This document shows, piece by piece, positions 43,384-57,973 of a stretch of 64,000 bases of DNA. Position numbers and translations under genes: made by a program. The DNA comes from an uncultured Planctomycetaceae bacterium (GTDB lineage Bacteria > Planctomycetota > Planctomycetia > Pirellulales > Thermoguttaceae), in contig CAZTPX010000008.1 in NCBI GenBank assembly GCA_964615095.1, positions 57,361 through 121,360 on the forward strand, written 5' to 3'. Within the stretch, counting starts at the first letter, position 1, and every line of letters begins with the position of its first letter. The notes beneath the pieces were generated by a model, which ran no database searches, was not told the DNA's origin, and worked only from the letters and a program-made list of their open reading frames with translations.

Positions 43384-44523
43384 ATGTCAAAACTAATGAT
43401 ATTCGGTAGGGCGTCGTTTATCGCCCTGGTGATTGTCGCGATGTGCGCGGGTGTGTCGTTTGCCCGCGGGGGCGGAGGAGGTCATGGAGGTGGTGGCGGA
43501 GGCCACGGAGGTGGTTGGGGCGGAGGTGGCGGTAGAGGATGGGGTGGAGGCGGTGGCGGGCGTTCATTCAGCTACGGATCCGCATACCGTGGCGGTGGAT
43601 TCGCACATGCCGGGACGGCGGCCTTTGCGGCCAATCGCGGCGTCAATTCGTTCGCCGCACGGAATGTTTACGGCAACTACTTCGGCCACGGCTATTATGG
43701 TCACGGCTATGGCGGCTGGGGTTGGGGTGGTTGGGGATGGGGCGCCCTGGCTTGGGGATTGCCTTGGTACGGCGGCTGGGGTTGGGGCGGCGGGTATTAT
43801 CCGTACGCCTACGATTACGACTACGCGTATCCGGACTTAGGCGGTTATTACTATACCTACGCGCCCGCCACCTATGACGACACGGGCGCTGTCGTGGGTT
43901 CCGGCATGACGCCTCCCCAGCAGATCCCGGAGGCAATGGCGATGACCCCTACGAGCACGGGCCAAGACGACGTGGCCAATGAAGCCATGCAGTTCTATTC
44001 GGAAGCGCGAACGGCCTTCCAGCAGGGCGATTACCAGAAGGCCCTGCGACTGGCCAGCCACTCCGCCGTGGATGCGCAAGGCAACGCCAAGGTCCACGAG
44101 TTGATCTCCCTATGCCTGTTTGCCTTGAAGAACTATCCGGCCGCGGCCAGCGAAGCGCATGCCGCCATGGCCTTGGGACCGATCGCCGAGTGGAAGGACC
44201 TCTTCGCTTTTTACAGTGACCCGGCCAACAGCACGCCGGAGATGACCAGCCTGGAAGCTGCGAAGTACACCAACCAGTTGCGTGCCCTGGAGAAGGCAAC
44301 GACCGACGATCCCAAGTCCGCCGCGGACCATTTCCTGCTGGGCTATCACTACTTGATGACCGGCGCACGCGACAATGCGAAGCTGCAGTTCGTGGACGCG
44401 GCAAAGCTGACGCCGAAAGACAAGCTTGCCGCCTACTACCTCAAGGCACTGGAGTCCAACGGGCCGATCACGCCGCCCAAGATCGCCACCAAACCCCAGG
44501 GTGGTGAATCGATGGAACGGTAG
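43384..44523 (+). CDS. secreted Gly/His/Trp/Tyr-rich protein with conserved TPR-like C-terminal domain (paralog 1)
   Basis: Signal/anchor MSKLMIFGRASFIALVIVAMCAGVSFARG. Then GGGGHGGGGGGHGGGWGGGGGRGWGGGGGG...GYGGWGWGGWGWG...YYPYAYDYDYAYPD. C-terminal ~200 aa is collinear with 52040..53098 and 53187..54515. Confidence 0.75.
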   Translation: MSKLMIFGRASFIALVIVAMCAGVSFARGGGGGHGGGGGGHGGGWGGGGGRGWGGGGGGRSFSYGSAYRGGGFAHAGTAAFAANRGVNSFAARNVYGNYFGHGYYGHGYGGWGWGGWGWGALAWGLPWYGGWGWGGGYYPYAYDYDYAYPDLGGYYYTYAPATYDDTGAVVGSGMTPPQQIPEAMAMTPTSTGQDDVANEAMQFYSEARTAFQQGDYQKALRLASHSAVDAQGNAKVHELISLCLFALKNYPAAASEAHAAMALGPIAEWKDLFAFYSDPANSTPEMTSLEAAKYTNQLRALEKATTDDPKSAADHFLLGYHYLMTGARDNAKLQFVDAAKLTPKDKLAAYYLKALESNGPITPPKIATKPQGGESMER

Positions 44524-44587
44524 CTCGATTTGCGTGAACCCGTCTTTCGTTGCAGCGTGGCGTGCAGCGGCAGGAGCGGTGTACTTG

Positions 44588-45421
44588 ATGTCGCCGTTGG
44601 AGTTTGTCCTCTCGCTGTTCGCCATCTGCCTGGGGGCCGGGTTTATCGGCTCCCTGGTGGGACTGGGCGGCGGAATCATCGTCGTGCCGGCCCTGACGTT
44701 GATCTACGGCGTCGACATCCGCTATGCGATCGGCGCGTCGATCGTCTCCGTGATTGCCACTTCCAGCGGGGCGGCGGCAGCCTACGTGCGCGAAGGAATG
44801 ACAAACCTCCGCACGGCGATGCTGCTGGAAATCGGTACAACCGCCGGCGCAATCAGCGGCGCCTTCCTGGCCGGCGTCGTGCAAGGCCGGTGGTTGTACC
44901 TCATTTTTGGAGTCGCCCTGGCAGGCTCGGGCCTGGCCATGCTGCGGCAAGCCGGGGGCAGGGCGCGGCCCGTGCCGCCCGATGCCTGGGCCGACTGGTT
45001 CCAACTTCACGGGACGTACTTCGACGAATCGCGGCAGGGCGAGGTCCCGTATCGAGTTGCCCATACCCGCCTGGGCCTTTTCTTGATGTACGTCGCCGGC
45101 GTCAGTAGCGGCCTGCTGGGGATCGGCTCCGGAATGTTGAAAGTCCCGGCCATGGATCTCGCCATGCGGATCCCCCTCAAGGTCTCGACCGCGACCAGCA
45201 ATTTCATGATCGGCGTAACGGCGGCAGCTAGCGCGGGCGTTTATTTCAGCCGGGGCGACATCGACCCGTTCATCGCCGCGCCCGTGGCCCTGGGCGTCGT
45301 ACTGGGGGCGATGGCCGGTTCCCGCGCGTTGAAGAGCATCGATAACCGCTTGCTGCGGATGGTCTTCGTAGCCATTTTGCTCGTCGTCTCGGCACAGATG
45401 GTTTGGAAAGGGGTCCACTAA
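44588..45421 (+). CDS. TauE/SafE (DUF81) family anion exporter
   Basis: The in-frame ATG at 44588 gives MSPLEFVLSLFAICLGAGFIGSLVGLGGGIIVVPALTLIYGVDIRYAIGASIVSVIATS. Two-fold repeat of 4-TM units, typical of DUF81. Confidence 0.8.
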   Translation: MSPLEFVLSLFAICLGAGFIGSLVGLGGGIIVVPALTLIYGVDIRYAIGASIVSVIATSSGAAAAYVREGMTNLRTAMLLEIGTTAGAISGAFLAGVVQGRWLYLIFGVALAGSGLAMLRQAGGRARPVPPDAWADWFQLHGTYFDESRQGEVPYRVAHTRLGLFLMYVAGVSSGLLGIGSGMLKVPAMDLAMRIPLKVSTATSNFMIGVTAAASAGVYFSRGDIDPFIAAPVALGVVLGAMAGSRALKSIDNRLLRMVFVAILLVVSAQMVWKGVH

Positions 45422-45843
45422 TGCCGGAAAGGGAAGAACGATCCACAGTGCCGCGTGACGTCGCTATGAAGCGGATGGAAGCGCTCATCAGCCGTCTCTT
45501 GCAGGGAGGCGTCGTCCTGAGCATGGCCACAGTGACCTTGGGCGTGGTGCTGATGTTCGTTCACCATCCGGGCTATCTCCAATCGGCCGCCGATCTCCAG
45601 CGGCTTACCGCGCCGGGGGCCGCGATCCCGCACACGCCGGCCGACGTTGCCCGCGGGGTTCTTGCCGGGCAGGGGCGGGCCGTGGTGGCCTTGGGGCTTA
45701 TTCTGCTTATCGCCACGCCGATCCTGCGGGTAGCCGTTTCCCTGGTCGGTTTCGGCCTGCAACGCGACCGCGCGTACACGGTCATCTGCAGCCTGGTATT
45801 GATCGTGCTGCTGGTCTCGTTCGTCTTGGGGAAAGCGGAATAA
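45421..45843 (+). CDS. DUF1634-like small membrane protein
   Basis: The in-frame ATG at 45421 overlaps the TauE stop (TAATG). MPEREERSTVPRDVAMKRMEALISRLLQGGVVLSMATVTLGVVLMFV.... Three TM segments. DUF81-DUF1634 pairing is a known gene pair. Confidence 0.65.
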   Translation: MPEREERSTVPRDVAMKRMEALISRLLQGGVVLSMATVTLGVVLMFVHHPGYLQSAADLQRLTAPGAAIPHTPADVARGVLAGQGRAVVALGLILLIATPILRVAVSLVGFGLQRDRAYTVICSLVLIVLLVSFVLGKAE

Positions 45844-45851
45844 TCAGGCCC

Positions 45852-46188
45852 CTTGTGGTGCAGGCGTCCTGCTTGGCTTGGTTTTGTTCCGTAGGCAGAA
45901 GCTGTCACTCGTCGCGTAGCGACGCCATGATGGAAGCCGTGGGTTTCAACCCACGGTTTACGGTGCGCGCATATTTCTCCGTCGCGTAGCGACGGCCGAT
46001 TCTCAGTCGTCGCTACGCGACGAACGGAAGGATTATTCCGGACCGTCGTCCGTGGGTTGATACCCACGGCTACCATCGGCGGTCGCTACGCGACCAAGTC
46101 TGCCCGACAGAGAATGGAACAAAAACGGGGATAAGCCTCCCAGAGCCGCCAAAGGTCACTTACGCAGGCGGGACGCCTGCACCACAAG
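45852..46188. repeat. ~340-bp composite foldback element
   Basis: Outer arms cttgtggtgcaggcgtcc / ggacgcctgcaccacaag. Internal modules gtcgcgtagcgac (x4, self-complementary) and ccgtgggtttcaacccacgg / ccgtgggttgatacccacgg are placed mirror-symmetrically. No ORF. Confidence 0.8.
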
Positions 46189-46449
46189 CCGCTATCGATG
46201 GGAGTCGCTACGAAGCACTTCGGAGAGAATAACTGTTTAGCGGAATGGAGGAACAGCCCCCAGCCCGCTTGCCGGGCTGGTGAAGAAGTCTTTTTAGCGA
46301 TGTCTGCGGCCTCAATCGCTCGCAAGGCTCATTCACCTGCCAGACAAGCGGACAGGGACCTACGAAGTATTTTGGCCATCGCGTCTTCGCTCACAAGACT
46401 CTCGACAATTATTGTTATTCCTATCTGCCAGCCGATTCCGGCGGCCTCT

Positions 46450-46611
46450 ATGATGATCGGCTCCGTCGAGATTGCCAAGAAGCAGCTTGCCGAGGCCGTG
46501 AGACTAGCGCCCAGCGACAAGCTTGCCACCCACTACGTGCAACAACTCGAAGCCCACAAGCCGCTGACGCCCCCGGAAATGGCCTCCAAGCCTGGGGGCA
46601 CCGCGTTCTGA
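46450..46611 (+). pseudogene. C-terminal fragment (~53 aa) of the Gly/His/Trp/Tyr-rich TPR-like paralog family
   Basis: MMIGSVEIAKKQLAEAVRLAPSDKLATHYVQQLEAHKPLTPPEMASKPGGTAF aligns with ...LMIGARDNAKTELAEAAKLTPKDKLAGHYLQQLQSNSPLTPPQMAARPQGKAL. No upstream homology in any frame. Confidence 0.7.
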
Positions 46612-46685
46612 GGGCGGCTTGTGGCATGCCTTCACGCGCCAACGACCGTTTCCCGATTCTGAATTTTCTGCTTTGAACTTGTTTG

Positions 46686-46722
46686 GGATTTCGGATTTCG
46701 AATTTCGAATTTTGGATTTTTC
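46686..46722. repeat. AT-rich 'ggatttcg / cgaaat' repeat element
   Basis: ggatttcggatttcgaatttcgaattttggattttt. Same family as 25397 and the arms of 40566-40900. Confidence 0.7.
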
Positions 46723-46725
46723 TTT

Positions 46726-48378
46726 TTACGGGCAGGGACGGGAAAGCAGGTGCGGGCAGTCGGGGGCCATGCCGGGCGGCCGCGAGGTATCGACCGGACC
46801 CGGTTGGCCGACAGGACGGTCGCACACGAGGATGCGGGCCGGATAGCCCAAGGCCCGATAGAGTTGGAATTGGGCGCGATTGTAATTGTTGATGGCGGTG
46901 AAGTAGAGATCGTAAGACCGTTTCATTTCCTGCAGCGCGGCGACCGCTTCCTGAGGGCGGTTGATCAGTTCCAGCAGTCCGCCGGCAGCGCGGGTCTGGC
47001 CAATCCCGATAAGCGTGCCATTGTAGGTAATGACCGACTCCCGCACCGTGGTCTTGGCGGATTCGACCTGCAAGTCGGCCGCCTCCAGGTTGGCGCGGGC
47101 CTCGACGACTTCCTGCGCCACGCGGTCTTGCGTATCGGCCAGGTCGATACAGGCCCTTTGTTCCTGGGCCACGCGCTCGTGTACGCGGGCCCTGTTTCCC
47201 AGGCCAAGATTGTCGAGCGTCCAGACGGCGCCCACTTCCATGTCGAACCGCCCGCCGTAGAGATGCGTGCCGTCGTCGGGACCGCCGCCGAAGACGCCGC
47301 CGTTGAAATAGCCGCCCGGTCCGGTGCCTTGCATCACCACCGTGGGCAGCAGCGGCCGGACCCGCTCCTGCCGCACACGTTGCTCGCTGGCTTGCACCAA
47401 GGCCCTTTGCGACGACAATTCCGGCCGGTTGGCCAGACCCACCGGAATCAGGTCGGCAACCGCCAAGCGCGGCGAGATCATGGCGATCTGAAGATGTGGC
47501 GGTTCCAGGGGAACGACCACGGCGCCGGGGTTCAATCGCAGCACGCGGGCGAGTCGCGAACTGGCAATCCGCCAGTTGGCCCGCGCGGCGATGGCCTGCT
47601 GCTGCAAATCGAATTCCAGGGCCCGCACCCGATCGATCTCATTCCGCGACACCAACCCCCCGGCAAGGCCCGTCACTTTGCGGGCCAGGACCTCGGACTT
47701 CTCTACCGCATCCAGGGCGCCGGCCAACGTGCCGCGGGCCTGCTGCACGTCGAAGTATGCCACGGCCACCGTGAACAGGGCGTCGTTGCGCGCAGCCTGA
47801 AGATCGGCCTCGCGGGCCGCCAAATTCTGCCGGGCGACCAATGGGACGAAGATGGCGTCGGTGATACCGAAGTCCAGAGTCGCCCCGCCACCCGTAGCAA
47901 AGGCGCTCTTGTTGTCGCGAATGATCGTGCCATCCGTCGATTGGTCAAGCCCGGTGTGCCGGTAGAAGTCGGTACCGAAATTGAGGTTCGGCAACCCGAG
48001 TACCCTGGCACTTTGCAGCAAGGCAGCCGCCTCTTCCACGCTGCTGCGGGCCGCGGCGATGACCAGCGGGCGGGCGTTGGACAGGTACAGGGCCGTGGGC
48101 AGGTTGATCGGCAAGGGCTGGTCCGTTGCCGCGGGTTGGGCCGGTTGCATCTGGGGCGGTTGTGTGTTCTCGCTGAGGACGGGGCACCCGAGGACTTGGC
48201 CGGGCCCGGTATAGACCGGGACCAATCCTTGCGGCATGCCGACCTGCGGGGGCGGAGGGGCAACCTCCTCGGGACGACCGGGGTCGTAAGGTGGGGCCGC
48301 CAGGGCGATGGTTCCGCCGACCAACAATATGCACACACCGATTAGATATCGTGACATCATTGTCTTTCGAGGCAGCAT
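46726..48378 (-). CDS. TolC-like outer membrane efflux protein (OMF family)
   Basis: Track ORF 46726..48453. Its first 25 codons are a REP palindrome. The in-frame ATG at 48378 (or 48360) gives the signal peptide ...MMSRYLIGVCILLVGGTIALAAPP. Two internal OEP repeats (LPTALYLSNARPLVIAAARSSVEEAAALL..., SSQRALVQASEQRVRQERVRPLLP...). Confidence 0.75.
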   Translation of the reverse strand: MLPRKTMMSRYLIGVCILLVGGTIALAAPPYDPGRPEEVAPPPPQVGMPQGLVPVYTGPGQVLGCPVLSENTQPPQMQPAQPAATDQPLPINLPTALYLSNARPLVIAAARSSVEEAAALLQSARVLGLPNLNFGTDFYRHTGLDQSTDGTIIRDNKSAFATGGGATLDFGITDAIFVPLVARQNLAAREADLQAARNDALFTVAVAYFDVQQARGTLAGALDAVEKSEVLARKVTGLAGGLVSRNEIDRVRALEFDLQQQAIAARANWRIASSRLARVLRLNPGAVVVPLEPPHLQIAMISPRLAVADLIPVGLANRPELSSQRALVQASEQRVRQERVRPLLPTVVMQGTGPGGYFNGGVFGGGPDDGTHLYGGRFDMEVGAVWTLDNLGLGNRARVHERVAQEQRACIDLADTQDRVAQEVVEARANLEAADLQVESAKTTVRESVITYNGTLIGIGQTRAAGGLLELINRPQEAVAALQEMKRSYDLYFTAINNYNRAQFQLYRALGYPARILVCDRPVGQPGPVDTSRPPGMAPDCPHLLSRPCP

Positions 48379-48405
48379 CGCCCCGGCACGAAAGACTCTC
48401 ACTCT

Positions 48406-48448
48406 AACCCGAAGCGTAAGCGAAAGCCCCTCGCTTGCGCTTCGGGTT
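48406..48448. repeat. REP-like palindrome (aacccgaagcgtaagcga ... tcgcttgcgcttcgggtt)
   Basis: 18-bp arms with 1 mismatch. Same family at 50647-50700, 57613-57637 (half copy) and 57697-57762. Confidence 0.8.
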
Positions 48449-48589
48449 GGCATTGATCAACTTGGTTGCCGGGGTAATATCGCCCCCCTTTTTCGGGAAC
48501 CGAAGATTACGACTTTATCCATCTTTCGGATTGTATCGGAAAAGGCGGGGCCGCTAGCGGTGAAATAACGGTGCTTCCGATGCAGGTTG

Positions 48590-48806
48590 CGCATAGTGCC
48601 CAGTTTTTGGCGAGACTGCTTCAATTGCAGCGAACGACTCTTCGGCCCGAATCGGTTCGGCGAGAAATCCATGCCGGCATCCAGGCATCGCTTGCGGTCG
48701 CTTTCGAAGGCACTGGCCGTCAGGGCGACGATCGGGAGGTGCTCGTCGGTGTGCCGTTCTCCGGCGCGAATCCTCTCCGTCGAAACAGGACCGATCGCCG
48801 ACCGCC
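48590..48806 (-). pseudogene. response-regulator receiver domain remnant (C-terminal half, frameshifted)
   Basis: Own translation: ...STERIRAGERHTDEHLPIVALTASAFESDRKRCLDAGMD in one frame continues as GFLAEPIRAEESFAAIEAV in the frame of track ORF 48554..48814. The N-terminal half of the receiver is absent. Confidence 0.45.
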
Positions 48807-48810
48807 ACCG

Positions 48811-49347
48811 TCACGGCTGTACTCCACGGAGCTTGGCCAAATCGTGCGCGTGGCCGTTGGATCGCCAGTATACTTGCGCAACATCAATTTTGTACTCCAC
48901 GGAGCCTAGTGCGAGAGGGTCGCAGACATTGAGAACTTCGTTCACTGCGGCCTGCGCCAATTGGCGGACATAGTAGGACCGCGCGGAACCCCGGATCACG
49001 ATCCGGCCGTCGCGTCTTTCGACCGATAATTCGTTGATCCGACCAGCGGTGCGATTGGTGATCCACTGCGCCAGGCATTCGTCGAAATCGGCAAGCGAGG
49101 GGGAGGGAACCGGCGAGTTCTGCGGTTCATCCGCCGCAAGGCGATCTGGCGGAACATCGCTGCTTGCCGGCGGGCAATTGCCGCTGCCTTGGACCCGATC
49201 CCGCACCTCACGGCGATGGACGGGAATATCGGCGGGGGCAGAAATCCCCAGGCGCACGCGTGTCTTGCCCACGTCCACGACGTCGATGGTAATGCCCCGC
49301 TCGGGAAAAACAACTTGTTCGCCGATCTTACGCGTAAATACCAGCAT
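48811..49347 (-). CDS. csrA: CsrA/RsmA RNA-binding domain fused to a ~125-aa C-terminal extension (BON-like end)
   Basis: The in-frame ATG at 49347 gives MLVFTRKIGEQVVFPERGITIDVVDVGKTRVRLGISAPADIPVHRREV, a canonical CsrA fold sequence. It is followed by a Pro/Ser linker and ...INELSVERRDGRIVIRGSARSYYVRQLAQAAVNEVLNV.... Confidence 0.75.
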   Translation of the reverse strand: MLVFTRKIGEQVVFPERGITIDVVDVGKTRVRLGISAPADIPVHRREVRDRVQGSGNCPPASSDVPPDRLAADEPQNSPVPSPSLADFDECLAQWITNRTAGRINELSVERRDGRIVIRGSARSYYVRQLAQAAVNEVLNVCDPLALGSVEYKIDVAQVYWRSNGHAHDLAKLRGVQP

Positions 49348-49456
49348 CTGGAAGTCCTTTCTGACGTGGGTTTGCACTACGACGGAATTTGCTCCGGCAG
49401 CGTTTGAGGCACAGGTGATTCATGGCAGGGAGTCCCTCCTGGCGATGCGCTGACAA

Positions 49457-49882
49457 TCAGGCACGCTCCATTCTGGCGGGAAAAGGCGGCAGGCCCATGC
49501 GCAGCGACTCGCTGCATTCGGCAACCCGCCGTCCAAGGGTGCGATCGACAATCTGTCTCAACTCGGCCAGGTCATCGGCTTTCGCGACACATGCCGTGGC
49601 CAACAGCGCGCGGTCGTCGCGCAGGCAATCCTCGTCATGCGCGGTGAAAAGGATCACCGGCGTCCGGGGGGAAAGACTCTTGATTTGCGCAAGCGTATCC
49701 AGCCCGCTGCAGCGAGGCATGGAAATGTCGAGGATCGCCAGGTCCGGCGTTTCCGCGATGAACATTTCCAGGGCCTCGACCCCGTCGCGTGCGAGGACTA
49801 CGCGATATCCTTCGTCTGTAAACGCCGCGCGGCAGTACTCGCGGATGTTCTTGTGGTCGTCGGCAAAGAGAATGGTTTTCAT
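49457..49882 (-). CDS. single-domain response regulator (CheY-like receiver)
   Basis: MKTILFADDHKNIREYCRAAFTDEGYRVVLARDGVEALEMFIAETPDLAILDISMPRCSGLDTLAQIKSLSPRTPVILFTAH. Confidence 0.8.
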   Translation of the reverse strand: MKTILFADDHKNIREYCRAAFTDEGYRVVLARDGVEALEMFIAETPDLAILDISMPRCSGLDTLAQIKSLSPRTPVILFTAHDEDCLRDDRALLATACVAKADDLAELRQIVDRTLGRRVAECSESLRMGLPPFPARMERA

Positions 49883-49939
49883 TCGGAAGAATACTCACGT
49901 TGTCTTGTAGTTCTCGTAAGAATCGTCAGGAAACCGGCT

Positions 49940-50392
49940 TTATTTTGAAAATGTATCCGCGGCGAACATGTCAGTGACTTTTCGCTCCTCATGTTCGATC
50001 TTGAGCCAGTCCAGCCAGCCGTGGGCCTTTGCCGCCTCGGTCGCGTGATGCTCAGCCCGGGCCGCACAGCGACGCACTTGCTCATCGCTGGTTCCCTCTC
50101 CAAACAGCACTTTGACCCGAATCGTGTCCGGTTTAGACGCGTCGTACAAATAATGCACGGCAACTCCGCCCGTCACGCGCTGGCTGTTGGCCAACGCCTG
50201 GCGGGAATTGAGCAGCAGACACAACCACTCGCCTTTCGTCGGAGTGTAAGGTGATGCGCCTCTTCGATCCTTGTCGGATCCAGTTTGAGAGGCAGCTAGC
50301 AACGTCGCCACAAACAGCGATGCCGCGCCACAAGACACAATCCAAACAACGGTCCGCCAAGCGAACCGCGACCGATTTGCCGATGCGTTCAT
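49940..50392 (-). CDS. hypothetical membrane-anchored protein, 150 aa
   Basis: In-frame ATG at 50392 with GGAGG RBS. MNASANRSRFAWRTVVWIVSCGAASLFVATLLAAS (signal/anchor). No family recognised. Preceded by a sigma-54 promoter. Confidence 0.6.
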   Translation of the reverse strand: MNASANRSRFAWRTVVWIVSCGAASLFVATLLAASQTGSDKDRRGASPYTPTKGEWLCLLLNSRQALANSQRVTGGVAVHYLYDASKPDTIRVKVLFGEGTSDEQVRRCAARAEHHATEAAKAHGWLDWLKIEHEERKVTDMFAADTFSK

Positions 50393-50438
50393 GGGGCTAC
50401 CTCCGGTAAAGCAGGAATTGTTGTATGGTCCCCGGGTA

Positions 50439-50454
50439 AGCATTCCCCGTGCCA
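50439..50454 (-). promoter_or_regulatory. sigma-54 promoter (minus-strand TGGCACGGGGAATGCT)
   Basis: Matches TGGCACG-N4-TTGCW at all core positions except one T. Correct GG-N10-GC spacing. The -12 end lies 46 nt upstream of the ATG at 50392. Identical 16-mer at 51390-51405. Confidence 0.75.
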
Positions 50455-50550
50455 GATTGCCGTATGTTTCCGATAAGGAGCGTAAGTTTCAATGCTCTCG
50501 CAGTTTAGGAAAAGAATAATCCTGGCTGCGGACGTCCAGGTTCGCTCTTG

Positions 50551-50568
50551 CCGTCCAGGTTTGGACGG
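50551..50568 (-). promoter_or_regulatory. candidate enhancer (UAS) palindrome CCGTCCA-AACC-TGGACGG
   Basis: Perfect 7-4-7 palindrome starting 114 nt upstream of the TGGCAC of the 50454 promoter. Half-site repeat acctggacg lies 10 nt downstream. Homologous sites with the same spacing occur at 51503-51520 and 57844-57861. Confidence 0.6.
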
Positions 50569-50621
50569 CGGTTCCGGGAAATCGTCCGAAAACCGACGCT
50601 GGCCCTGGAGGGAGCCGTTAC

Positions 50622-50745
50622 ACTGTTCGCGGGCGAAAATGATCGAAACCCGACGCGTAAGCGAGGAATCTAATCCGTTACCTCGCTTACGCATCGGGTT
50701 ACGACCGCCACCTAGAAGAACGTATCATTTTCGCCCGCGAACAGT
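50622..50745. repeat. nested palindromic element (22-bp perfect outer arms)
   Basis: actgttcgcgggcgaaaatgat (50622-50643) is the exact reverse complement of 50724-50745. The inner hairpin aacccgacgcgtaagcgagg ... cctcgcttacgcatcgggtt belongs to the 48406 family. Confidence 0.85.
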
Positions 50746-50888
50746 ATAAGAAAGCAGCCGGTACAAGGCATGTGGCGGCTGCTTTTCTCGCGACACCTGT
50801 TGCTTCGTGGGTCCCAATCGCGATCGTTCCGTCGTCAACACCGAATCTTGGTCCCCTGGGACCCGCAAGTCCTCCGAGGCCCGTCCCG

Positions 50889-51332
50889 TCACTCATTGTA
50901 GAAATCTTCCAGGTCCTGCGACCATCCAGAGTTCGCGGAGTTCACGCACGGCGGCGGGGCCACGTACGTCGGCGGCGGAGCCGCCACGGCAGTTGGTGGG
51001 AGCGACGGCGCCGGCATGCTCGGGTTGTCAATCGGACGCGCCGCGGTGTACGTCGTTGGGTGACCCGAGCCGGCGGCTACCGCGTCGAGAACGACAAAAG
51101 TAATCTGACCGGTCTTCGCGTCGAGCAATACGTCTTTGATCCGGCCGATTTTTTGGCCCTGCGAATCAAGCACCGTCGTGCCCGTCAGCGCAGAGACCCG
51201 AATGGTCCCTGCCGAGCCTTGCATCGGCGACCGGTCTTGGCCGATGTTTGGCGCCGCCGCGCTTGCCAGCGATGCTCCCAAAAGAAGCACTGCGGCAAAG
51301 GCAGCCAGTGAAAAAGTCCAACGCGCGATCAT
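50889..51332 (-). CDS. secreted PRC-barrel domain protein
   Basis: Signal peptide MIARWTFSLAAFAAVLLLGASLASAAA. VSALTGTTVLDSQGQKIGRIKDVLLDAKTGQITFVVLD is the PRC-barrel signature. Pro-rich C-terminus. Preceded by a sigma-54 promoter. Confidence 0.7.
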   Translation of the reverse strand: MIARWTFSLAAFAAVLLLGASLASAAAPNIGQDRSPMQGSAGTIRVSALTGTTVLDSQGQKIGRIKDVLLDAKTGQITFVVLDAVAAGSGHPTTYTAARPIDNPSMPAPSLPPTAVAAPPPTYVAPPPCVNSANSGWSQDLEDFYNE

Positions 51333-51389
51333 GTTCTACCCCTTTCAAAAAGTGTTAGATAACCGTTGTCAACGCGTTAGCTGTTCGTT

Positions 51390-51405
51390 AGCATTCCCCG
51401 TGCCA
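51390..51405 (-). promoter_or_regulatory. sigma-54 promoter (minus-strand TGGCACGGGGAATGCT)
   Basis: 16-mer identical to 50439-50454. The -12 end lies 57 nt upstream of the ATG at 51332. Confidence 0.75.
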
Positions 51406-51502
51406 ATTCGAAGCATGCTTCCGCCATGGAACCACAAGTGCTGACGCTGCCGCAAGTTAGGACCGCGGCAATCCTGACGAAAGACTCTGATGCGCCTCTC
51501 TG

Positions 51503-51520
51503 CCGTCCAGATTTGAACGG
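51503..51520 (-). promoter_or_regulatory. candidate enhancer (UAS) palindrome CCGTTCA-AATC-TGGACGG
   Basis: Starts 115 nt upstream of the TGGCAC at 51405. One mismatch to a perfect palindrome. Conserved caggatt block 44 nt downstream, as in the other two modules. Confidence 0.6.
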
Positions 51521-51712
51521 AGGCAACAAAAAAAGTGTCGGAATATGGACGGAAGCCTGGGAGAGAGCGCGTTGCGGTTTCGGTCGCTTCACGTTGATCA
51601 GCAACGACTTACAAGATTTCCGTCGAACACAATGCACACGCCCGACCGAGAGGCATGGTATTTGCGTCAAGTCCTTGTAAGTGTCCGCAGGGGCTCCGCC
51701 CCTTCAGCCGGA

Positions 51713-52006
51713 ATGGCTATCGATTTGCGGGATGAGGCCATCCGCCATTTGGAAGTGACGGTCGTGTTAGCGCCGAGGACTGGTGAATACCTGTGCGCGT
51801 GGGCCGAGGCCTACGAATTGGCTGCGAGGAATGAAGAGAGCCTCGCCGTAATCCAGTGGGCCATTACTCTGAACCCTGCCGTAGACAAGTATTACCGAGT
51901 GCTAGCCAGTGTTGCCTCGAAAACAGGGGCCTACCGCCTGTATAACCAGGGCCTACTGGGAATGGTCGGGAGCAGCGGATGTTGCAGTCATGTCCACAAA
52001 TCATAA
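51713..52006 (+). CDS. possible small helical (TPR-like) protein; weak call
   Basis: Track ORF 51545..52006, whose 5' part overlaps the promoter module of the neighbouring gene. The internal ATG at 51713 gives MAIDLRDEAIRHLEVTVVLAPRTGEYLCAWAEAYELAARNEESLAVIQWAITLNPAVDKYY.... Poor RBS. Confidence 0.25.
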   Translation: MAIDLRDEAIRHLEVTVVLAPRTGEYLCAWAEAYELAARNEESLAVIQWAITLNPAVDKYYRVLASVASKTGAYRLYNQGLLGMVGSSGCCSHVHKS

Positions 52007-52039
52007 AGAGAGAAATCCTTCCTACGAAAGGGGAAAACC

Positions 52040-53098
52040 ATGTCCAGGAAACTACTTTTCGGAAGAGCGTCGTTGATCGCGATCTTGCTTGTCGCGCTCT
52101 CAACCGGTGTGTCGTTTGCGCGCGGAGGTGGAGGCGGAGGTCATGGAGGAGGCGGAGGCTTTGGCGGAGGTGGATTTCGTGGGGGTGGTTGGGGTGGAGG
52201 TTATAGAGGCGGGATGCGGGCCGGCTCGTTCGGTTCCATCGCCCCGTCCCACGCCTTCAGCGGTGGTGAATTTGGCCGCGCCGGAACAGGTATGGGCTAT
52301 GGCGGCCACTTTGGCAACGGTTACGGCGGATACGGCAACCGATACGGCAGCTACTTTGGCCGCGGCGGTTACGGCGGCTATGGTGGTTGGGGGTGGGGCG
52401 GTTACGGGTTGGGCTGGGGTTTGGATTGGGGGTATCCGTATGATTATGATTACGGCTACTACTACCCAGACACGGGTGACTATTACTATTCCTACGCGCC
52501 GACTAGTTCTGTCGACAGCAGCGTGACGGCTCCTCAACAGTTTGCGGACTCAGCAGAAATTGCACCGACGATCACGTCGGACCCGCAGCAAGGGGCCAAC
52601 GAAGCCCTTCAGTTCTACTCCGAGGCGCGAGCGGCCTTCCTGCAGGGTGATTACAAAGACGCCCTGCGTCTGGGAGGCCATGCCGCCGTGGATGCGCCAC
52701 AGAATCCTAAAGCTCACGAACTGATTTCGTTGGCCTTGTTCGCCTCGGGCAAATATGCCCCCGCGGCCAGCGAGGCGCATGCGGCGATGGCCTTGGGAAC
52801 GATTGCCGGCTGGAACGACCTGTACGCCTACTACAACAACGCCGACAAATACACGACTCAGTTGCGCGCTTTGGAAAAGGCGGTAGCTGCCAATCCCAAG
52901 GATGCAGCGGAGCGTTTCCTGCTGGGGTATCACTACTTGATGATCGGTGCCCGCGACAACGCGAAAACCGAGCTTGCCGAGGCCGCCAAGTTGACGCCAA
53001 AGGACAAGCTTGCCGGCCACTACCTCCAGCAACTCCAGTCGAACTCGCCGCTCACGCCTCCGCAGATGGCGGCACGACCACAAGGCAAGGCGCTTTGA
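52040..53098 (+). CDS. secreted Gly/His/Trp/Tyr-rich protein with conserved TPR-like C-terminal domain (paralog 2)
   Basis: MSRKLLFGRASLIAILLVALSTGVSFARGGGGGGHGGGGGFGGGGFRGGGWGGGY...GGYGGYGGWGWGGYGLGWGLDWGYPYDYDYGYYYPD.... C-terminal blocks NEALQFYSEARAAFLQGDY, SEAHAAMALGT and FLLGYHYLMIGARDNAKT. Confidence 0.75.
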   Translation: MSRKLLFGRASLIAILLVALSTGVSFARGGGGGGHGGGGGFGGGGFRGGGWGGGYRGGMRAGSFGSIAPSHAFSGGEFGRAGTGMGYGGHFGNGYGGYGNRYGSYFGRGGYGGYGGWGWGGYGLGWGLDWGYPYDYDYGYYYPDTGDYYYSYAPTSSVDSSVTAPQQFADSAEIAPTITSDPQQGANEALQFYSEARAAFLQGDYKDALRLGGHAAVDAPQNPKAHELISLALFASGKYAPAASEAHAAMALGTIAGWNDLYAYYNNADKYTTQLRALEKAVAANPKDAAERFLLGYHYLMIGARDNAKTELAEAAKLTPKDKLAGHYLQQLQSNSPLTPPQMAARPQGKAL

Positions 53099-53111
53099 CG
53101 GCGCTGTACAT

Positions 53112-53168
53112 GCCACGGATCAAACACAGGATGAAACACGGAAAGAAAATCCGTGTTTCATCTGTGGC
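53112..53168. repeat. REP-like hairpin (gatgaaacacgga-aagaaaa-tccgtgtttcatc) between paralogs 2 and 3
   Basis: 13-bp perfect stem flanked by gccac.../...gtggc. Same family as the tandem catccgtgttt units at 10-45 inside pglX. Confidence 0.8.
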
Positions 53169-53186
53169 AAGACAAAGGAGAAAGCC

Positions 53187-54515
53187 ATGTCGAGAGAACT
53201 ATTCTTTGGAAGAGCGTCGTTTATTGCGGTCGCAATCGTTGCGCTGTGTGCGAGTTTGTCGCTTGCGCGTGGTGGCGGAGGGCACGGAGGTGGCGGAGGG
53301 CATGGAGGAGGAGGAGGCCATGGAGGAGGTTTTCACGGCGGCGGAGGGCATGCAGGCGGTGGTTTTCGTGGCGGTAGTTCGCACGCCGGGGGCAGCGCGA
53401 TGCATGCCGGCTCGTTTGGGTCGATCTCCCCTTCACACGCAGGGAGCCGCGGTCAGTTCGCCCACGGTGGCAACTTCGGCGGTCGCCCTGGAAGTACCTT
53501 CGCCGGCCGCGCCGGCAGTGGCTTCGCCGGTCGTGCCGGCAGCGCCTTTGCCGGCCGCTATGGGAACAACTTTGCCGGCCGCTCCGGCAATTGGGCCGGC
53601 AACCATGCGTGGGACAACTACTTCCGCCGCGGCGGCTACGGTGGCTATGGTGCCTACGGTGGTTACGCCGGCTGGGGAGGTTACGGCGGCTATGGTGGTT
53701 GGGGGTGGGGCGGTTACGGGCTGGGATGGGGCGGTTATTGGCCCTGGTATGGCGGCTGGGGTTTGGCTTTGGGGTCATGGGGATACCCCAATAACTACGG
53801 CTACTATTATCCCGATGCCAGTTACTATTCCTACACGCCGAACGATTATTCTACCTACGTTCCATCGGACTATTATTCCTCCTCTGCGCCATCTGTTTAT
53901 GTTGACGGCAGCGCAGTCGCGAATCAGCAGTTTGCGGACTCATCGGCAATAGCGCCGACGATCGCCGAGGAAGGCAGCCCGGCAGGCGGTCCTGCCCAGG
54001 ACCAGTCAGGAACCAGCGAAGCGATGAAGTTCTACTCCGAATCGCGCACGGCCTTCCTGCATGGCGATTATCAAAACGCCCTGCGGTTGGCAACCCATGC
54101 CGCCGTGGATGCGCCGCAGAATGCCAAAGTCCACGAATTGATTTCATTGGCCTTGTTCGCCTTGGGAAACTACGGCCCGGCGGCCGGCGAGGCGCATGCG
54201 GCGATGGCCTTGGGAACGCTTGCCGACTGGAGTGACTTGTACGCCTATTACAACAACGCCGAGAAGTACACCACCCAGTTGCGCGCTTTGGAAACGGCGG
54301 CGGCCGCCAATCCGAAGGACGCAGCGGACCATTTCCTGTTGGGGTATCACTACTTGATGATCGGCGCCCGCGACAACGCGAAGACGCAGTTCGCCGGGGC
54401 GGTGAAACTGGCGCCAAATGACAAGCTTGCCGGCCACTACCTCCAGGAACTCCAGTCCAACGCGCCGCTCACGCCTCCGCAGATGGCGTCAAAGCCACAA
54501 GGCAGGGAGTTGTAA
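53187..54515 (+). CDS. secreted Gly/His/Trp/Tyr-rich protein with conserved TPR-like C-terminal domain (paralog 3)
   Basis: In-frame ATG at 53187 with AAGGAG RBS. MSRELFFGRASFIAVAIVALCASLSLARGGGGHGGGGGHGGGGGHGGGFHGGGGHAGGGF...FAGRAGSGFAGRAGSAFAGRYGNNFAGRSG...GGYGGYGGWGWGGYGLGWGGYWPWYGGWG.... C-terminal domain nearly identical to paralog 2. Confidence 0.75.
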   Translation: MSRELFFGRASFIAVAIVALCASLSLARGGGGHGGGGGHGGGGGHGGGFHGGGGHAGGGFRGGSSHAGGSAMHAGSFGSISPSHAGSRGQFAHGGNFGGRPGSTFAGRAGSGFAGRAGSAFAGRYGNNFAGRSGNWAGNHAWDNYFRRGGYGGYGAYGGYAGWGGYGGYGGWGWGGYGLGWGGYWPWYGGWGLALGSWGYPNNYGYYYPDASYYSYTPNDYSTYVPSDYYSSSAPSVYVDGSAVANQQFADSSAIAPTIAEEGSPAGGPAQDQSGTSEAMKFYSESRTAFLHGDYQNALRLATHAAVDAPQNAKVHELISLALFALGNYGPAAGEAHAAMALGTLADWSDLYAYYNNAEKYTTQLRALETAAAANPKDAADHFLLGYHYLMIGARDNAKTQFAGAVKLAPNDKLAGHYLQELQSNAPLTPPQMASKPQGREL

Positions 54516-54617: not shown

Positions 54618-56051
54618 TTAGGGTTCCGGCAAGTCTTCGCGCGCGTGCATCCCAAATTTCTGCATCCTGGCGTGCAGCGTCGGTCGCGGCATTCCCAACA
54701 GCCGCGCAGCATGCGTCTGATTGCCCTGCGATCGCCGCAATGCCTCCACGATCAAAAGCCTCTCCACCATCCCCAGCAAATCCTCGCTGGCATGCACGCC
54801 ACCGTACGAGGTCAAATACGTTTGGACCAGGTTCAACCACTGCTCTTGGCGGGAAGGATTGGCTTCGCCGGCCGCCGCCTGGGAGTCCGTTCTCACGGTC
54901 CAGGGCAGGTCCTGGGCCTGGATCGTATAGCCTCCGGCAAAGATCATCAGCCGCTGAATCAGGTGTTCCAGTTCCCGCACGTTGCCCGGCCAGGCGTAAT
55001 TCACCAGGGCATCGAGCGCATTTTGGGCCAACGGCGGACGTTCGATACCGGCCGCGCGGGCAAAGCGGCTCAAGAAATAGTCGACCAGAAGGGGAATGTC
55101 GTCGCGCCTTTCCCGCAATGGCGCAAGCTGCAAGGTGACCACGTTGAGGCGGTGGTAAAGGTCATCGCGAAAGCCGCCCGCGGCAATCGCCCGTTCCAAA
55201 TCGCGGTTGGTGGCGCAGAGCACGCGCACGTCGGACTGGATCGTTTCATTGCCGCCCAGCCGCTGGAAGGTCCCGTCTTGCAAGACCCGCAGGATCTTGG
55301 CCTGGACCATAAGGGGAATGTCGCCGATTTCATCCAGGAGGATCGTCCCGCCGTGGGCTTGTTCGAACTTTCCGATCCGCCGCGTCATGGCGCCGGTGAA
55401 TGCGCCGGGCTCATAACCGAACAACTCGCTTTCCAGGAGCGTTTCGGGGATGGCCGCACAGTTCACCACAACCAGCGGCATCTTACTCCTGTGGCTATGC
55501 TGATAGATGGCCCGGGCCACCAGTTCCTTTCCTGTGCCCGATTCGCCGCGAATGAGAACGGTCGCATCGGTTGGGGCCACCCGCCCGATGGCCTTGTAGA
55601 GCTGCTGCATCGGCGGACTGCGGCCCACGATGGCGTCGGCCGGCGGCACGACCGTCTCGGGATCCAGGGCGAGGCGGCCCTTCATTAGCCGGGCCGCTTC
55701 TAGCGCCTTGGCGATGGTACGGAGCATTTCCGCCGGCTCAAAGGGCTTCAACAGGTAATCGTAGGCCCCGCGCTTCGTGGCCTCGATGGCCGTATCGGTC
55801 GTGCCCTGGCCGGTCATGACGATCACGGGCAGCGTCGGCCGTAGCTTCCTGATCCGGGCCAGGGCATCTAGGCCGCTCATGCCCGGCAGGCGGATGTCGA
55901 GGATCACCAGTTCCACGCCAGCGTCCTGCAGGCGCCGCATGGCCTCTTCCGCGCCGTGCACGCCGATGACTTCGTGCCCGCGCGTCGCGAGAATCTCTTC
56001 AAACGCCCGCACGACGTTGCGTTCATCGTCAACGACGAGAATCTTGGCCAT
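54618..56051 (-). CDS. NtrC-family sigma-54-dependent response regulator (receiver + AAA+ + Fis HTH)
   Basis: In-frame ATG at 56051 with GGAGGA 6 nt upstream. MAKILVVDDERNVVRAFEEIL...[64 protein letters not shown]. Overlaps the kinase gene by 23 nt. Confidence 0.9.
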   Translation of the reverse strand: MAKILVVDDERNVVRAFEEILATRGHEVIGVHGAEEAMRRLQDAGVELVILDIRLPGMSGLDALARIRKLRPTLPVIVMTGQGTTDTAIEATKRGAYDYLLKPFEPAEMLRTIAKALEAARLMKGRLALDPETVVPPADAIVGRSPPMQQLYKAIGRVAPTDATVLIRGESGTGKELVARAIYQHSHRSKMPLVVVNCAAIPETLLESELFGYEPGAFTGAMTRRIGKFEQAHGGTILLDEIGDIPLMVQAKILRVLQDGTFQRLGGNETIQSDVRVLCATNRDLERAIAAGGFRDDLYHRLNVVTLQLAPLRERRDDIPLLVDYFLSRFARAAGIERPPLAQNALDALVNYAWPGNVRELEHLIQRLMIFAGGYTIQAQDLPWTVRTDSQAAAGEANPSRQEQWLNLVQTYLTSYGGVHASEDLLGMVERLLIVEALRRSQGNQTHAARLLGMPRPTLHARMQKFGMHAREDLPEP

Positions 56052-57543
56052 GGCCATCCTCCGAAGCAATGGGCAACCAAATGGCGAAGGTCGTGCCTTT
56101 TTCTGTCGAAGATTCCAACACGAGTCCGCCGCCGTGCGCGGCCATGATCTGGGCGGCAATGCACAGGCCCAGGCCCGTGCCTTGTTCCTTCGTGGTGAAA
56201 AAGGGTTCGAAGATGCGGCACTGGACGTCGGGAGGCATGCCGGGGCCCGAGTCGCGGACCCGCAGGACGACCATGGGCCGGCCGTCAGCATCCTTCTCGG
56301 CATTCGAAGTGATACGGATTTCACCTCCACCGGCCATGGCGTCCGCGGCGTTGCCCAACAGATTCAGCAAGACCTGTTTGAGCTGCGCCGCGTCGGCCAT
56401 GACGGGCGGCAACGGGGAGCGGGGTGTGCAGGTTATCCTGATTTTCTCGCCTTGGAAACGCGGCCCAAGAAGCTCCTGCGTCTGATCGAGCACCGCGCCG
56501 ACGTCATGTGGCTGACAATCAAGCGTCCGCGGACGGGAAAACTCAAGGAAATCCCTGACAATGCTCTCCAACCGCGAAATCTCTTCCGAGATAATACCCA
56601 GTTTTCGCGCCAAGTCGGCGTTTCCCTGGACGGCCTCTCGGACCGAGAAGAGCCACATCTTCATGGCCGTGAGCGGATTGCGGATTTCGTGGGCCACGCT
56701 GGCCGCGAGCTTGCCCACGGAGGCAAGCTTCTCGGCGACCAGGAGCTGGTTGCGGCTCCTTTCCAATCGAGAGCGCGTATCGCTCACATCCGACATCAAG
56801 TTGCGAAGGTGATTTCCCATAATACGCAATTCGTCTTCCTCGGATCCTTTGTCGTGCGCATGGCGATCGCCACGGTAGGATTGAGCATCTGCGACCATGC
56901 CGCGCAGTGGAAAAAGCACTCGATAGAAAAACAGCCAAAGCAGAAGGCCGCCCAAGAGGAGCGTCAACGTGCTGGATACGCCGACCACCCAGGTGCTCTG
57001 ACGCATCCGGCGGCCGGCCCGCTCGATGCTCTTGCCGCCGGCCTGGGCGTGGATGGCAGCCAACTGGCCGCAGAGACGGCGGGCTTCCGGGGAAAGGCGG
57101 CCCTCGACCTCCGTGAACAGGATTTTCTTGGCCCGTTGCGTTTCGCCTCGCTTGTCAAGTGCCAGCACTTCTTCCCATCGGGCCTGGAGGTCGGCCAAGG
57201 TCGTCTTGAATTGGGAAATGGCGTCCGTTTCTTCGTTTGAAACGGGAATCGTATCGTCGATTGCCGCCGTCCAGTCTCGAAAACGAGGTTCCAAGTCGCG
57301 GAATCTGTTCTCCCAAGCCGGGTTGCCCTTGTCCAGAAGACATGAGGCAATCAGGTTGTTACCCTCCAGGATCGCTGTTTCCACCTCTTCGGCGCGGAGG
57401 CTGGGAAGATTCTGCTGGATGGCCTCTTGCAGGCGAAAGTGGACGCGCAAGGCGGCGTATAAGGTTACGAGGCTGCTCAGGATTGCGAGCGCGACGACCC
57501 CCAGGATCGTCATGGAGAACTTCGTTGCTAGACTCCAACGCAT
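56029..57543 (-). CDS. sensor histidine kinase (two TM segments, periplasmic helical sensor, HisKA + HATPase_c)
   Basis: MRWSLATKFSMTILGVVALAILSSLVTLYAAL (TM1). WVVGVSSTLTLLLGGLLLWLFFY (TM2). H-box KLAASVAHEIRNPL. N and G boxes LLNLLGNAADA, RDSGPGMP and GTGLGL. Confidence 0.9.
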   Translation of the reverse strand: MRWSLATKFSMTILGVVALAILSSLVTLYAALRVHFRLQEAIQQNLPSLRAEEVETAILEGNNLIASCLLDKGNPAWENRFRDLEPRFRDWTAAIDDTIPVSNEETDAISQFKTTLADLQARWEEVLALDKRGETQRAKKILFTEVEGRLSPEARRLCGQLAAIHAQAGGKSIERAGRRMRQSTWVVGVSSTLTLLLGGLLLWLFFYRVLFPLRGMVADAQSYRGDRHAHDKGSEEDELRIMGNHLRNLMSDVSDTRSRLERSRNQLLVAEKLASVGKLAASVAHEIRNPLTAMKMWLFSVREAVQGNADLARKLGIISEEISRLESIVRDFLEFSRPRTLDCQPHDVGAVLDQTQELLGPRFQGEKIRITCTPRSPLPPVMADAAQLKQVLLNLLGNAADAMAGGGEIRITSNAEKDADGRPMVVLRVRDSGPGMPPDVQCRIFEPFFTTKEQGTGLGLCIAAQIMAAHGGGLVLESSTEKGTTFAIWLPIASEDGHGQDSRR

Positions 57544-57957: not shown

Positions 57958-57973
57958 TGGCACGCGAAATGCA
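57958..57973 (+). promoter_or_regulatory. sigma-54 promoter (TGGCACGCGAAATGCA)
   Basis: Matches TGGCACG-N4-TTGCW with one mismatch in the -12 box. Correct GG-N10-GC spacing. Lies 212 nt upstream of the RND transporter ATG. Confidence 0.7.

Follow-up and report, generated by a model that had tools for sequence, protein, structure and literature searches.

The window examined in this study, 64,000 nucleotides of contig CAZTPX010000008.1 from an uncultured Planctomycetaceae bacterium, encodes three paralogous proteins and the remnant of a fourth. In each full-length copy, a predicted signal peptide is followed by a disordered, glycine- and aromatic-rich low-complexity region and a C-terminal tetratricopeptide repeat (TPR) domain. 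We propose that these are conditionally expressed envelope proteins whose disordered regions self-associate and whose TPR groove is docked on a conserved partner, a tentative reading to which we assign a probability of roughly 35%. The fold (TPR) and exported disordered proteins are both of known kinds. Their combination here joins a poly-glycine N-terminus punctuated by histidine or arginine, aromatic-glycine disorder, a YP-rich motif and a C-terminal TPR domain, together with restriction to Planctomycetota and Verrucomicrobiota and a putative sigma-54-type box in one clade. No description of the family was found in the literature searched, nor was it found as a curated family or a solved structure. 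The envelope biology of these two phyla is poorly understood, and a family of at least 1,700 clusters at 50% identity still lacks a proper name.

Three paralogues of one architecture

Copy 1 (43384-44523, 379 amino acids), copy 2 (52040-53098, 352 amino acids) and copy 3 (53187-54515, 442 amino acids), all on the plus strand, were delineated from open reading frames (ORFs) and alignment, and are preceded by the ribosome-binding sites GAAAGG, AAAGGGG and AAAGGAG, respectively. The ORF of copy 3 is open upstream to a TTG at 53010; its start was set at the ATG at 53187, which lines up with the starts of the paralogues. Comparison by tblastn revealed 59–71% identity between the copies over the C-terminal ~200 residues (E 1e-60 to 1e-80), and separate matches over the first 22–27 residues, corresponding to the signal peptides. 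As judged from these alignments, the similarity is far beyond chance and the three copies are true paralogues. The first-pass annotation of this DNA had described a three-gene family at these positions, with blocks conserved almost letter for letter and a shared architecture of signal sequence, Gly/His/Trp/Tyr-rich low-complexity region and TPR-like domain. The genes, their paralogy and the conserved blocks were all recovered, and the architecture was borne out by alignment, composition and AlphaFold2 (AF2) modelling.

The signal peptide occupies residues 1–27 in all three copies (43384-43464, 52040-52120 and 53187-53267) and ends in SFA or SLA, followed by RGGGG. It comprises a basic n-region, MSRKLLFGR, a 15-residue hydrophobic core, ASLIAILLVALSTGV, and SFA, then RGGG. 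The signal peptide and its cleavage site were judged by rule (basic n-region, core of 10–15 residues, small residues at −3 and −1), and on that basis a Sec-dependent cleavable signal peptide is predicted for every copy. Inspection of the signal sequence revealed neither a lipobox nor a twin-arginine motif, and the Sec-type pattern recurred in 84 homologues. If cleaved at SFA/SLA, the mature proteins would begin with a run of glycines interrupted by His or Arg residues.

The disordered region that follows (43465-43983, 52121-52603 and 53268-54020) spans 173, 161 and 251 residues in copies 1, 2 and 3; the length of 120–220 residues estimated earlier fits copies 1 and 2 and is slightly short for copy 3. 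Its composition is similar in the three copies, with 32–35% Gly, ~18–20% Tyr, Trp and Phe together, 2–4% His, ~4% Arg, and no Lys or Cys. Aromatic and Arg/His residues are spaced by Gly, Ser and Asn in the predicted disordered segment, and copy 3 carries GGGGGH three times together with FAGRxGSx repeats. The region terminates in a conserved GWGYPYxYGYYYP...DYYYxYAP motif, seven positions of which (G118, Y132, P133, Y140, Y148, Y152 and P154) were at least 90% conserved across 68 homologues. AF2 prediction of full-length copy 2 gave a predicted local distance difference test (pLDDT) score below 50 for residues 26–178 and above 94 for the TPR domain, with the signal helix retained. Docking of the aromatic motif or the C-terminal tail in the TPR groove was rejected as a candidate arrangement, since this model contained no ordered contact of that kind. 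Rfam returned only sub-threshold matches in the window; one of these, at 43482-43518 on the plus strand, within the part of copy 1 that codes for the Gly/His tract, was to the prion mRNA pseudoknot (29.4 bits, E 0.068) and most likely reflects GGN-repeat coding akin to that of the PrP octarepeat.

All three reading frames are open over the Gly-coding stretch, gene callers disagree on the starts, and some metagenome-assembled genomes are frame-shifted there, as would be expected if the genes were non-functional or mis-called ORFs arising from GGN-rich DNA. This explanation is effectively refuted. The frame is kept from the signal peptide to the TPR domain, and the architecture with it, in all three paralogues and in over 95 full-length homologues from different orders and two phyla, and a ribosome-binding site precedes each ATG in the window. 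Gly codons are mixed (GGC, GGT, GGA and GGG) in the low-complexity region of all copies, which is therefore not a simple DNA repeat; the DNA repeats within it are short (18 and 24 nt) and encode GGGGGH, FAGRxGSx and GGYGGY. The identical copy 1 protein (379 amino acids) was found on five contigs, three of them from JGI, ENA and Logan assemblies. Recurrence of the same protein in independent assemblies excludes an assembly artefact as the origin of the low-complexity region, as the first-pass annotation had also expected.

In public annotation, copies 2 and 3 (P0001, P0043) are called from internal Met59 and Met72, so that the signal peptide and the Gly/His block (52040-52214 and 53187-53400) are missing from the predicted products. 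Start or frame miscalls of family genes were also observed at five related loci (L003, L005, L006, L007 and L013), and long-read metagenome-assembled genomes contained several frame-shifted or wrong-frame calls across the GGN tract, for example products starting MEVEAEA... or MEVAATAAAA.... As a result of these miscalled starts and frames, the architecture of the family is often hidden in public annotation.

The C-terminal domain is 164–179 residues long in the three copies (TPR domain and tail at 43984-44520, 52604-53095 and 54021-54512). AF2 prediction of the C-terminal 173 residues of copy 2, using a 103-sequence alignment, yielded nine helices with a pLDDT of 93.7, and the model fits the right-handed superhelix of antiparallel helix pairs typical of TPR proteins. 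Mapping onto canonical TPR numbering suggests four repeats and a capping helix, and would place conserved residues at groove-lining helix-A positions (Y5/R9/F12 in TPR1, E5/L9/F12 in TPR2 and F5/Y9/L12 in TPR4). Canonical positions 4, 7/8, 11, 20, 24, 27 and P32 could be mapped, and in its four ~34-residue helix-turn-helix repeats and capping helix the predicted domain resembles generic TPRs (designed CTPR, MamA, RPAP3/Hop-type and APC/C proteins). It differs from them in its irregular third repeat and in its Pfam scores, in that TPR_16, TPR_2, ANAPC3 and TPR_19 matched the family domain at E 1e-5 to 1e-2, all under their gathering scores.

A profile of 103 homologues matched a designed TPR (E 1.8e-6) and CDC27 (E 3e-4) among PDB sequences. 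The top 50 Foldseek matches in the PDB were all TPR proteins at probability 1.0, including MamA, consensus TPRs, RPAP3 and APC/C subunits, with template modelling scores of only 0.35–0.44 and root-mean-square deviations of 10–13 Å. In NCBIfam, the MamA, PilW, BatC and PrsT models gave 13–28 bits against cut-offs of 154–312. Membership in MamA (NF040959) was ruled out at 24.7–27.9 bits against an equivalog cut-off of 200, and membership in the PilW/TadD/BatC/PrsT group of TPR lipoproteins at 13–21 bits against cut-offs of 154–312; pilus, Bat and PEP-CTERM genes were absent as neighbours in 78 related loci. No characterised TPR family is known to have the N-terminal architecture seen here. The C-terminal domain is thus a divergent TPR domain without a specific characterised relative. 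It is recognisable at the level of the superfamily, and no specific characterised family was found for it in Pfam, NCBIfam, the PDB profile search or Foldseek, in agreement with the earlier failure to assign these proteins.

Distribution and composition of the family

A word-indexed search recovered more than 508 proteins. An exhaustive search with the domain recovered 3,429 clusters at 50% identity with E ≤ 1e-3, 1,717 with E ≤ 1e-10 and 165 with E ≤ 1e-30, and the TPR domain was nearly always C-terminal in these clusters. In species-representative genomes, the family was present in Pirellulales/Thermoguttaceae, in Planctomycetaceae, Schlesneria and Planctomyces, and in Isosphaeraceae and Paludisphaera; carriers among Verrucomicrobiota included the isolate Haloferula sp. 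BvORR071. The family is confined to Planctomycetota and some Verrucomicrobiota. Many genomes harbor several copies, frequently in tandem, and the only database names given to members are "TPR repeat protein", "hypothetical protein" and "TadD".

The TPR domain is 45–82% identical across the family. The low-complexity region, with a median of 185 residues and a range of 71–278 in 95 full-length members, is not alignable, and in distant members it extends to several hundred residues of His/Met-rich or Pro/Thr-rich repeats. A conserved TPR domain joined to a variable low-complexity region implies a conserved binding partner. Three distant members (L038, L043 and L051) carry an extra beta-rich domain after the TPR domain in their C-terminal ~100 residues, which scored 16.6–22.9 bits (cut-off 93) against TIGR03066, a paralogous family of Gemmata obscuriglobus.

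A conserved TPR domain on a predicted disordered linker of such variable length would also be expected of a TPR adaptor on a passive flexible tether similar to LpoB or CpoB. There, the low-complexity region would be an entropic spacer, the N-terminus possibly an uncleaved anchor, and the TPR domain would reach its partner across the periplasm or the peptidoglycan. CpoB (YbgF), LpoA and LpoB function in the envelope and are exported, as is predicted for the family, and they too pair a TPR or other adaptor domain with a long segment that is flexible or oligomerises. Their linker composition differs from that of the family, and no sequence relationship to them was detected in Pfam or NCBIfam. No Tol-Pal or penicillin-binding protein genes were found near the family in the 78 loci. 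We consider the tether quite unlikely, because a passive spacer needs neither an aromatic motif with seven positions at least 90% conserved nor a conserved poly-Gly start, and strict avoidance of Lys and Cys would be needless. With an AXA-like site directly ahead of the poly-Gly tract, cleavage is favored over an anchor.

In the 95 full-length members, the low-complexity region consisted of 26% Gly, 9.8% Tyr, 9% Ser, 8.9% Ala, 6.6% Pro, 4.8% His, 4.6% Trp, 4.6% Asn, 4.4% Phe and 3.5% Arg, with only 0.3% Lys, 0.2% Cys and ~0.7% Met; Tyr, Trp and Phe together accounted for 19%. Such a composition is typical of sticker-spacer, prion-like domains. FUS/hnRNPA1-type proteins, FG-nucleoporins, squid-beak and Nereis jaw proteins and plant glycine-rich proteins share with the family Gly/Ser/Asn spacers, Tyr/Phe/Trp/Arg/His stickers, the near absence of Lys and aliphatic residues, and FG-, YG- and WG-type dipeptide repeats. 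In FG-nucleoporins the disordered domain is, in addition, joined to an alpha-solenoid anchor. The likeness is a compositional analogy without homology, and the family differs in being bacterial and, by prediction, Sec-exported and TPR-anchored.

The same Gly/Tyr/Trp/His composition, together with GLGLGLG in relatives and an acidic Tyr/Asp patch, would suit a secreted extracellular matrix, adhesive or mineral-scaffold protein comparable to plant glycine-rich wall proteins, the His/Gly proteins of squid beak and Nereis jaw, or magnetosome LG-repeat proteins. The best NCBIfam and Foldseek matches include weak ones to MamA, which reflect generic TPR resemblance, and its 25–28 bits against a cut-off of 200 exclude membership. 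No outer-membrane secretion system or sorting signal was linked to the family genes, and sigma-54 control, proposed below, would suggest conditional rather than structural expression. We regard a matrix or scaffold role as very unlikely.

Counted from the first poly-Gly run, the initial 30 residues contained 19.6 Gly on average in 84 full-length members, at least one His in 90% of them and at least two in 68%. These frequencies bear on the main rival of our reading, a periplasmic metal sponge or chaperone resembling ZraP or SilE/PcoE under ZraSR-like sigma-54 two-component control. In that case, imidazole groups and backbone amides of the His-punctuated poly-Gly would serve as ligands for Cu(II), Ni(II) or Zn(II), and the tract would buffer metal stress. 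It is a possibility that we hold to be on the unlikely side. The His content of the low-complexity region (4.8%) favors it, as do the GGHMGG-type His/Met repeats of Schlesneria-branch members, in which His reaches 9–11%. On the other hand, the residue before the first poly-Gly run was His in 31 and Arg in 31 of the 84 members, and seven had no His in the tract; interchange as free as this is easier to reconcile with a role in charge or cation-pi contacts than with that of an obligate metal ligand. The exact sequence HGGGW occurred in just 3 of the 95 members (the looser HG(2-4)[WFY] in 32), and in the window copy 1 has a single HGGGW and copy 3 a single HGGGF. A prion-octarepeat-type Cu(II) site was thus ruled out as a feature of the family. 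The rarity of HGGGW and the scarcity of Lys, Cys and Met, with Cys lacking altogether from the low-complexity regions in the window, argue for charge or cation-pi interactions over obligate metal ligation.

SilE and PcoE are exported, disordered, His-containing proteins, a description that the family is predicted to share, and a role in metal buffering is possible. They share no sequence similarity with the family and use His/Met motifs without a folded domain, whereas aromatic-Gly content dominates in the family. ZraP, which belongs with ZraSR to a system for envelope and zinc stress in E. coli, is sigma-54-dependent; as a small exported protein with Gly/His-rich termini, it resembles the predicted products described here. 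No LTXXQ or Metal_resist match was obtained at E up to 1 in Pfam or NCBIfam, ruling out membership in ZraP/CpxP/Spy, and no SilE domain was present either; the folded part of the family is a TPR domain, in contrast to the LTXXQ, CpxP or Spy fold.

A candidate sigma-54 promoter and its putative regulators

A sigma-54-type −24/−12 box, AGGCATGGTATTTGC, was located by motif scan and alignment at 51651-51665 on the plus strand, upstream of the tandem pair formed by copies 2 and 3. The conserved box and the kinase/activator genes described below are new here, having been overlooked in the first-pass annotation. In four relatives (L002, L005, L006 and L007), AGGCAY-N5-TTTGC lies 64–79 nt before the first tandem gene, and alignment of five genomes revealed invariant GGCA and TTTGC columns amid diverged upstream DNA. 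The doublet spacing (GG and GC 10 nt apart, as in TGGCAC-N5-TTGC), upstream placement and conservation of the candidate box are those of a sigma-54-dependent promoter. When the strict motif GGCAY-N5-WTGC was searched within 300 nt upstream of 55 family genes with assignable starts, seven carried it against 0.61 expected, an enrichment of ~11-fold, and a relaxed motif was carried by ten against 1.1 expected. The motif-bearing genes included paralogues in unrelated contexts. Between the box and copy 2, the window contains ~320 bp absent from relatives (within 51632-52006). This insert holds a possible small TPR ORF of 97 amino acids from 51713 (124 amino acids in the public call), with a single homologue among 5.8 billion proteins (71% identity, TPR_16).

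The strict motif matched seven times in the window, five of these between 50.4 and 58.0 kb. Four boxes within 8 kb are correctly oriented and intergenic, standing before a 167-residue membrane protein, a PRC-barrel protein, the tandem pair and an operon for a resistance-nodulation-division (RND) pump and membrane-fusion protein (MFP). The boxes before the 167-residue protein (probable start 50392) and the PRC-barrel protein (start 51332) are identical, TGGCACGGGGAATGC, at 50440-50454 and 51391-51405 on the minus strand. The box before the RND-MFP operon, TGGCACGCGAAATGC, lies at 57958-57972 on the plus strand, 213 nt from the operon.

Between the tandem pair and that operon, on the minus strand, lie a gene for a histidine kinase (57543-56029; HisKA and HATPase_c in Pfam) and one for an NtrC-type activator (probable start 56057, stop 54618; Sigma54_activat at E 5e-71, Response_reg and HTH_8), convergent with copies 2 and 3. 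The boxes at 50440, 51391, 51651 and 57958 suggest a sigma-54 regulon around the activator at 54618-56057, and we infer that the kinase and activator are the candidate regulator of a small sigma-54 envelope regulon that would include the tandem pair. Synteny placed the two genes beside the tandem pair in L003, L005, L006 and L007. The syntenic block consists of genes on the minus strand for a CsrA-like protein, a single-domain response regulator, the 167-residue membrane protein and the PRC-barrel protein, followed by the tandem pair on the plus strand, and it ends with the activator and kinase on the minus strand. As a rule for the whole family, an NtrC/kinase neighbourhood was rejected, the arrangement being syntenic only in four close relatives and present in few distant loci. 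The CsrA ORF (48811-49377, minus strand) encodes 188 amino acids, with the CsrA domain at residues 11–63 and a C-terminal extension of ~120 residues; synteny between this ORF and the tandem pair was seen in L005, L006 and L007, and L002 has a shorter CsrA match close to the pair.

The regulators also bear on the metal-sponge alternative. For the kinase, ZraS was the second-best NCBIfam match, and the activator matched ZraR. Like zraP, the tandem pair has a sigma-54 promoter (a candidate one here) with an adjacent kinase and NtrC-type activator, and the sigma-54 box before the RND-MFP operon would fit the same role. However, both the ZraS and ZraR scores were far below cut-off and were exceeded by those of AtoS, NtrC and AtoC, and the tandem pair is convergent with its regulator genes rather than divergent as in the ZraP layout.

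Copies 2 and 3 are separated by 88 bp, and this spacer contains a hairpin with a perfect 13-bp stem (GATGAAACACGGA...TCCGTGTTTCATC) at 53130-53162. It has no T-run on the plus strand and could be an element of RNA processing, stability or attenuation. Apart from this hairpin, sigma-70 and terminator scans gave nothing above shuffled background.

Proposed function and gene neighbourhood

In the mechanism that we favor, the proteins would be made only on a signal sensed by the two-component system beside the tandem pair, and would be exported to the periplasm or envelope. There, the disordered regions may self-associate into a gel- or condensate-like layer, with aromatic and Arg/His residues acting as stickers and Gly, Ser and Asn as spacers. 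His would render the association responsive to pH or divalent metals, and the TPR groove would dock the assembly onto a conserved envelope partner.

Several observations weigh against this proposal. Composition alone is not proof of self-association, cleavage of the signal peptide is judged by rule, and the full-length AF2 model leaves the low-complexity region without contact to the TPR domain. Regulation raises further difficulties. In the window, the sigma-54 box lies 375 nt before the ATG of copy 2, with a possible small ORF in between; neither copy 1 nor copy 3 has a box of its own; and the motif was present on only 7–10 of the 55 family genes. Outside the syntenic clade, NtrC-type neighbours were not above a rough background estimate.

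A more specific form of the proposal is a TPR-anchored, phase-separated or hydrogel-like periplasmic layer, switched by sigma-54, that would alter the permeability or mechanics of the envelope under stress, making the family a bacterial counterpart of the sticker-spacer proteins of FG-nucleoporin or squid-beak type. We consider this form unlikely. If self-association or metal buffering in the periplasm were true, the family would represent a rare case of a regulated, exported bacterial low-complexity protein with an anchoring domain. The sigma-54 box and the adjacent kinase and activator offer a practical starting point in the search for the inducing signal.

The neighbourhood of the family was also compared across the related loci. 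Unbiased clustering of neighbouring genes revealed only two recurrent partners, namely family paralogues and a DUF4440/SnoaL-like protein of ~260–520 amino acids. The latter was encoded on the same strand in 14 distant loci of both phyla (L027, L028, L029, L030, L032, L034, L035, L046, L050, L055, L059, L060, L061 and L068), in Planctomycetaceae, Schlesneria and Verrucomicrobiota. It ends 0.03–1.4 kb upstream of the family ORF as called in this analysis and is positioned at ~5.2–7.3 kb in most loci, at 0.9–2.0 kb in L029 and at 3.9–4.8 kb in L068; a search of the window gave no homologue. A fused Dpp/Opp/Nik-type ABC ATPase of ~680 amino acids lies a few kb from His/Met-rich members in Schlesneria and some Planctomycetaceae, in full length at L027 (8979-11000, minus strand), L067 (3961-6006), L071 (10382-12427) and L078 (7052-9097), and as shorter ORFs of 239–280 amino acids at L040, L066 and L075. 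Because the Schlesneria loci are mutually syntenic, these represent few independent events.

The outer-membrane factor, RND and MFP neighbours noted in the first pass were confirmed in the window. The suggestion of a metal-homeostasis context drawn from them was not upheld. The RND permease (58185-61475) matched multidrug RND subfamily models best in NCBIfam, below cut-off, and gave 353 bits against a cut-off of 701 for the CusA/CzcA model TIGR00914; as far as these scores indicate, the pump is not clearly of the heavy-metal type. No metal-specific gene was found nearby, and no copper, zinc or nickel gene was recurrent in the 78 loci. These findings further disfavor the metal sponge.

Copy 1 is followed on the same strand, after 64 bp, by TauE (44588-45421; PF01925, E 3e-51) and then by DUF1634 (45421-45843; PF07843, E 1e-26). 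The order of these genes and their TAATG stop/start overlap (CACTAATGCCG at 45416-45426), both described previously, were reproduced by the Pfam matches and the sequence. No terminator was predicted between copy 1 and TauE, and co-transcription of the three genes is possible in this genome only. Co-occurrence of the TauE-DUF1634 pair with the family, which had been raised as a possible association, did not hold, as TauE was near a family gene in one of the 78 loci (a close relative, ~7 kb off and not adjacent) and DUF1634 in none.

Farther downstream, a 52-residue C-terminal piece of a fourth copy was identified by tblastn and alignment at 46450-46611 on the plus strand, where the first-pass annotation had also placed a fragment. 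Positions 46450-46605 matched the last 50–52 residues of every copy at 46–62% identity (E 6e-11 to 2e-15), and the piece retains part of TPR4, the capping helix and the PLTPP tail. It is called a remnant because tblastn detected no further similarity to the family copies upstream of 46450, and most probably represents a fragment of a pseudogene. The region separating the remnant from the DUF1634 stop holds a palindromic element of ~337 bp (45852-46188) that resembles a miniature inverted-repeat transposable element and may be connected with the loss of the rest of the fourth copy. The element is bounded by a 24-nt terminal inverted repeat (45852-45875 and 46165-46188), has nested inverted arms and contains the 13-mer GTCGCTACGCGAC four times, a sequence that occurs nowhere else in the window. 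Two sub-threshold Rfam matches to Acido-Lenti-1 RNA fall within the element, at 45910-45956 on the minus strand (32.9 bits; gathering score 37) and at 46050-46095 on the plus strand (24.1 bits).

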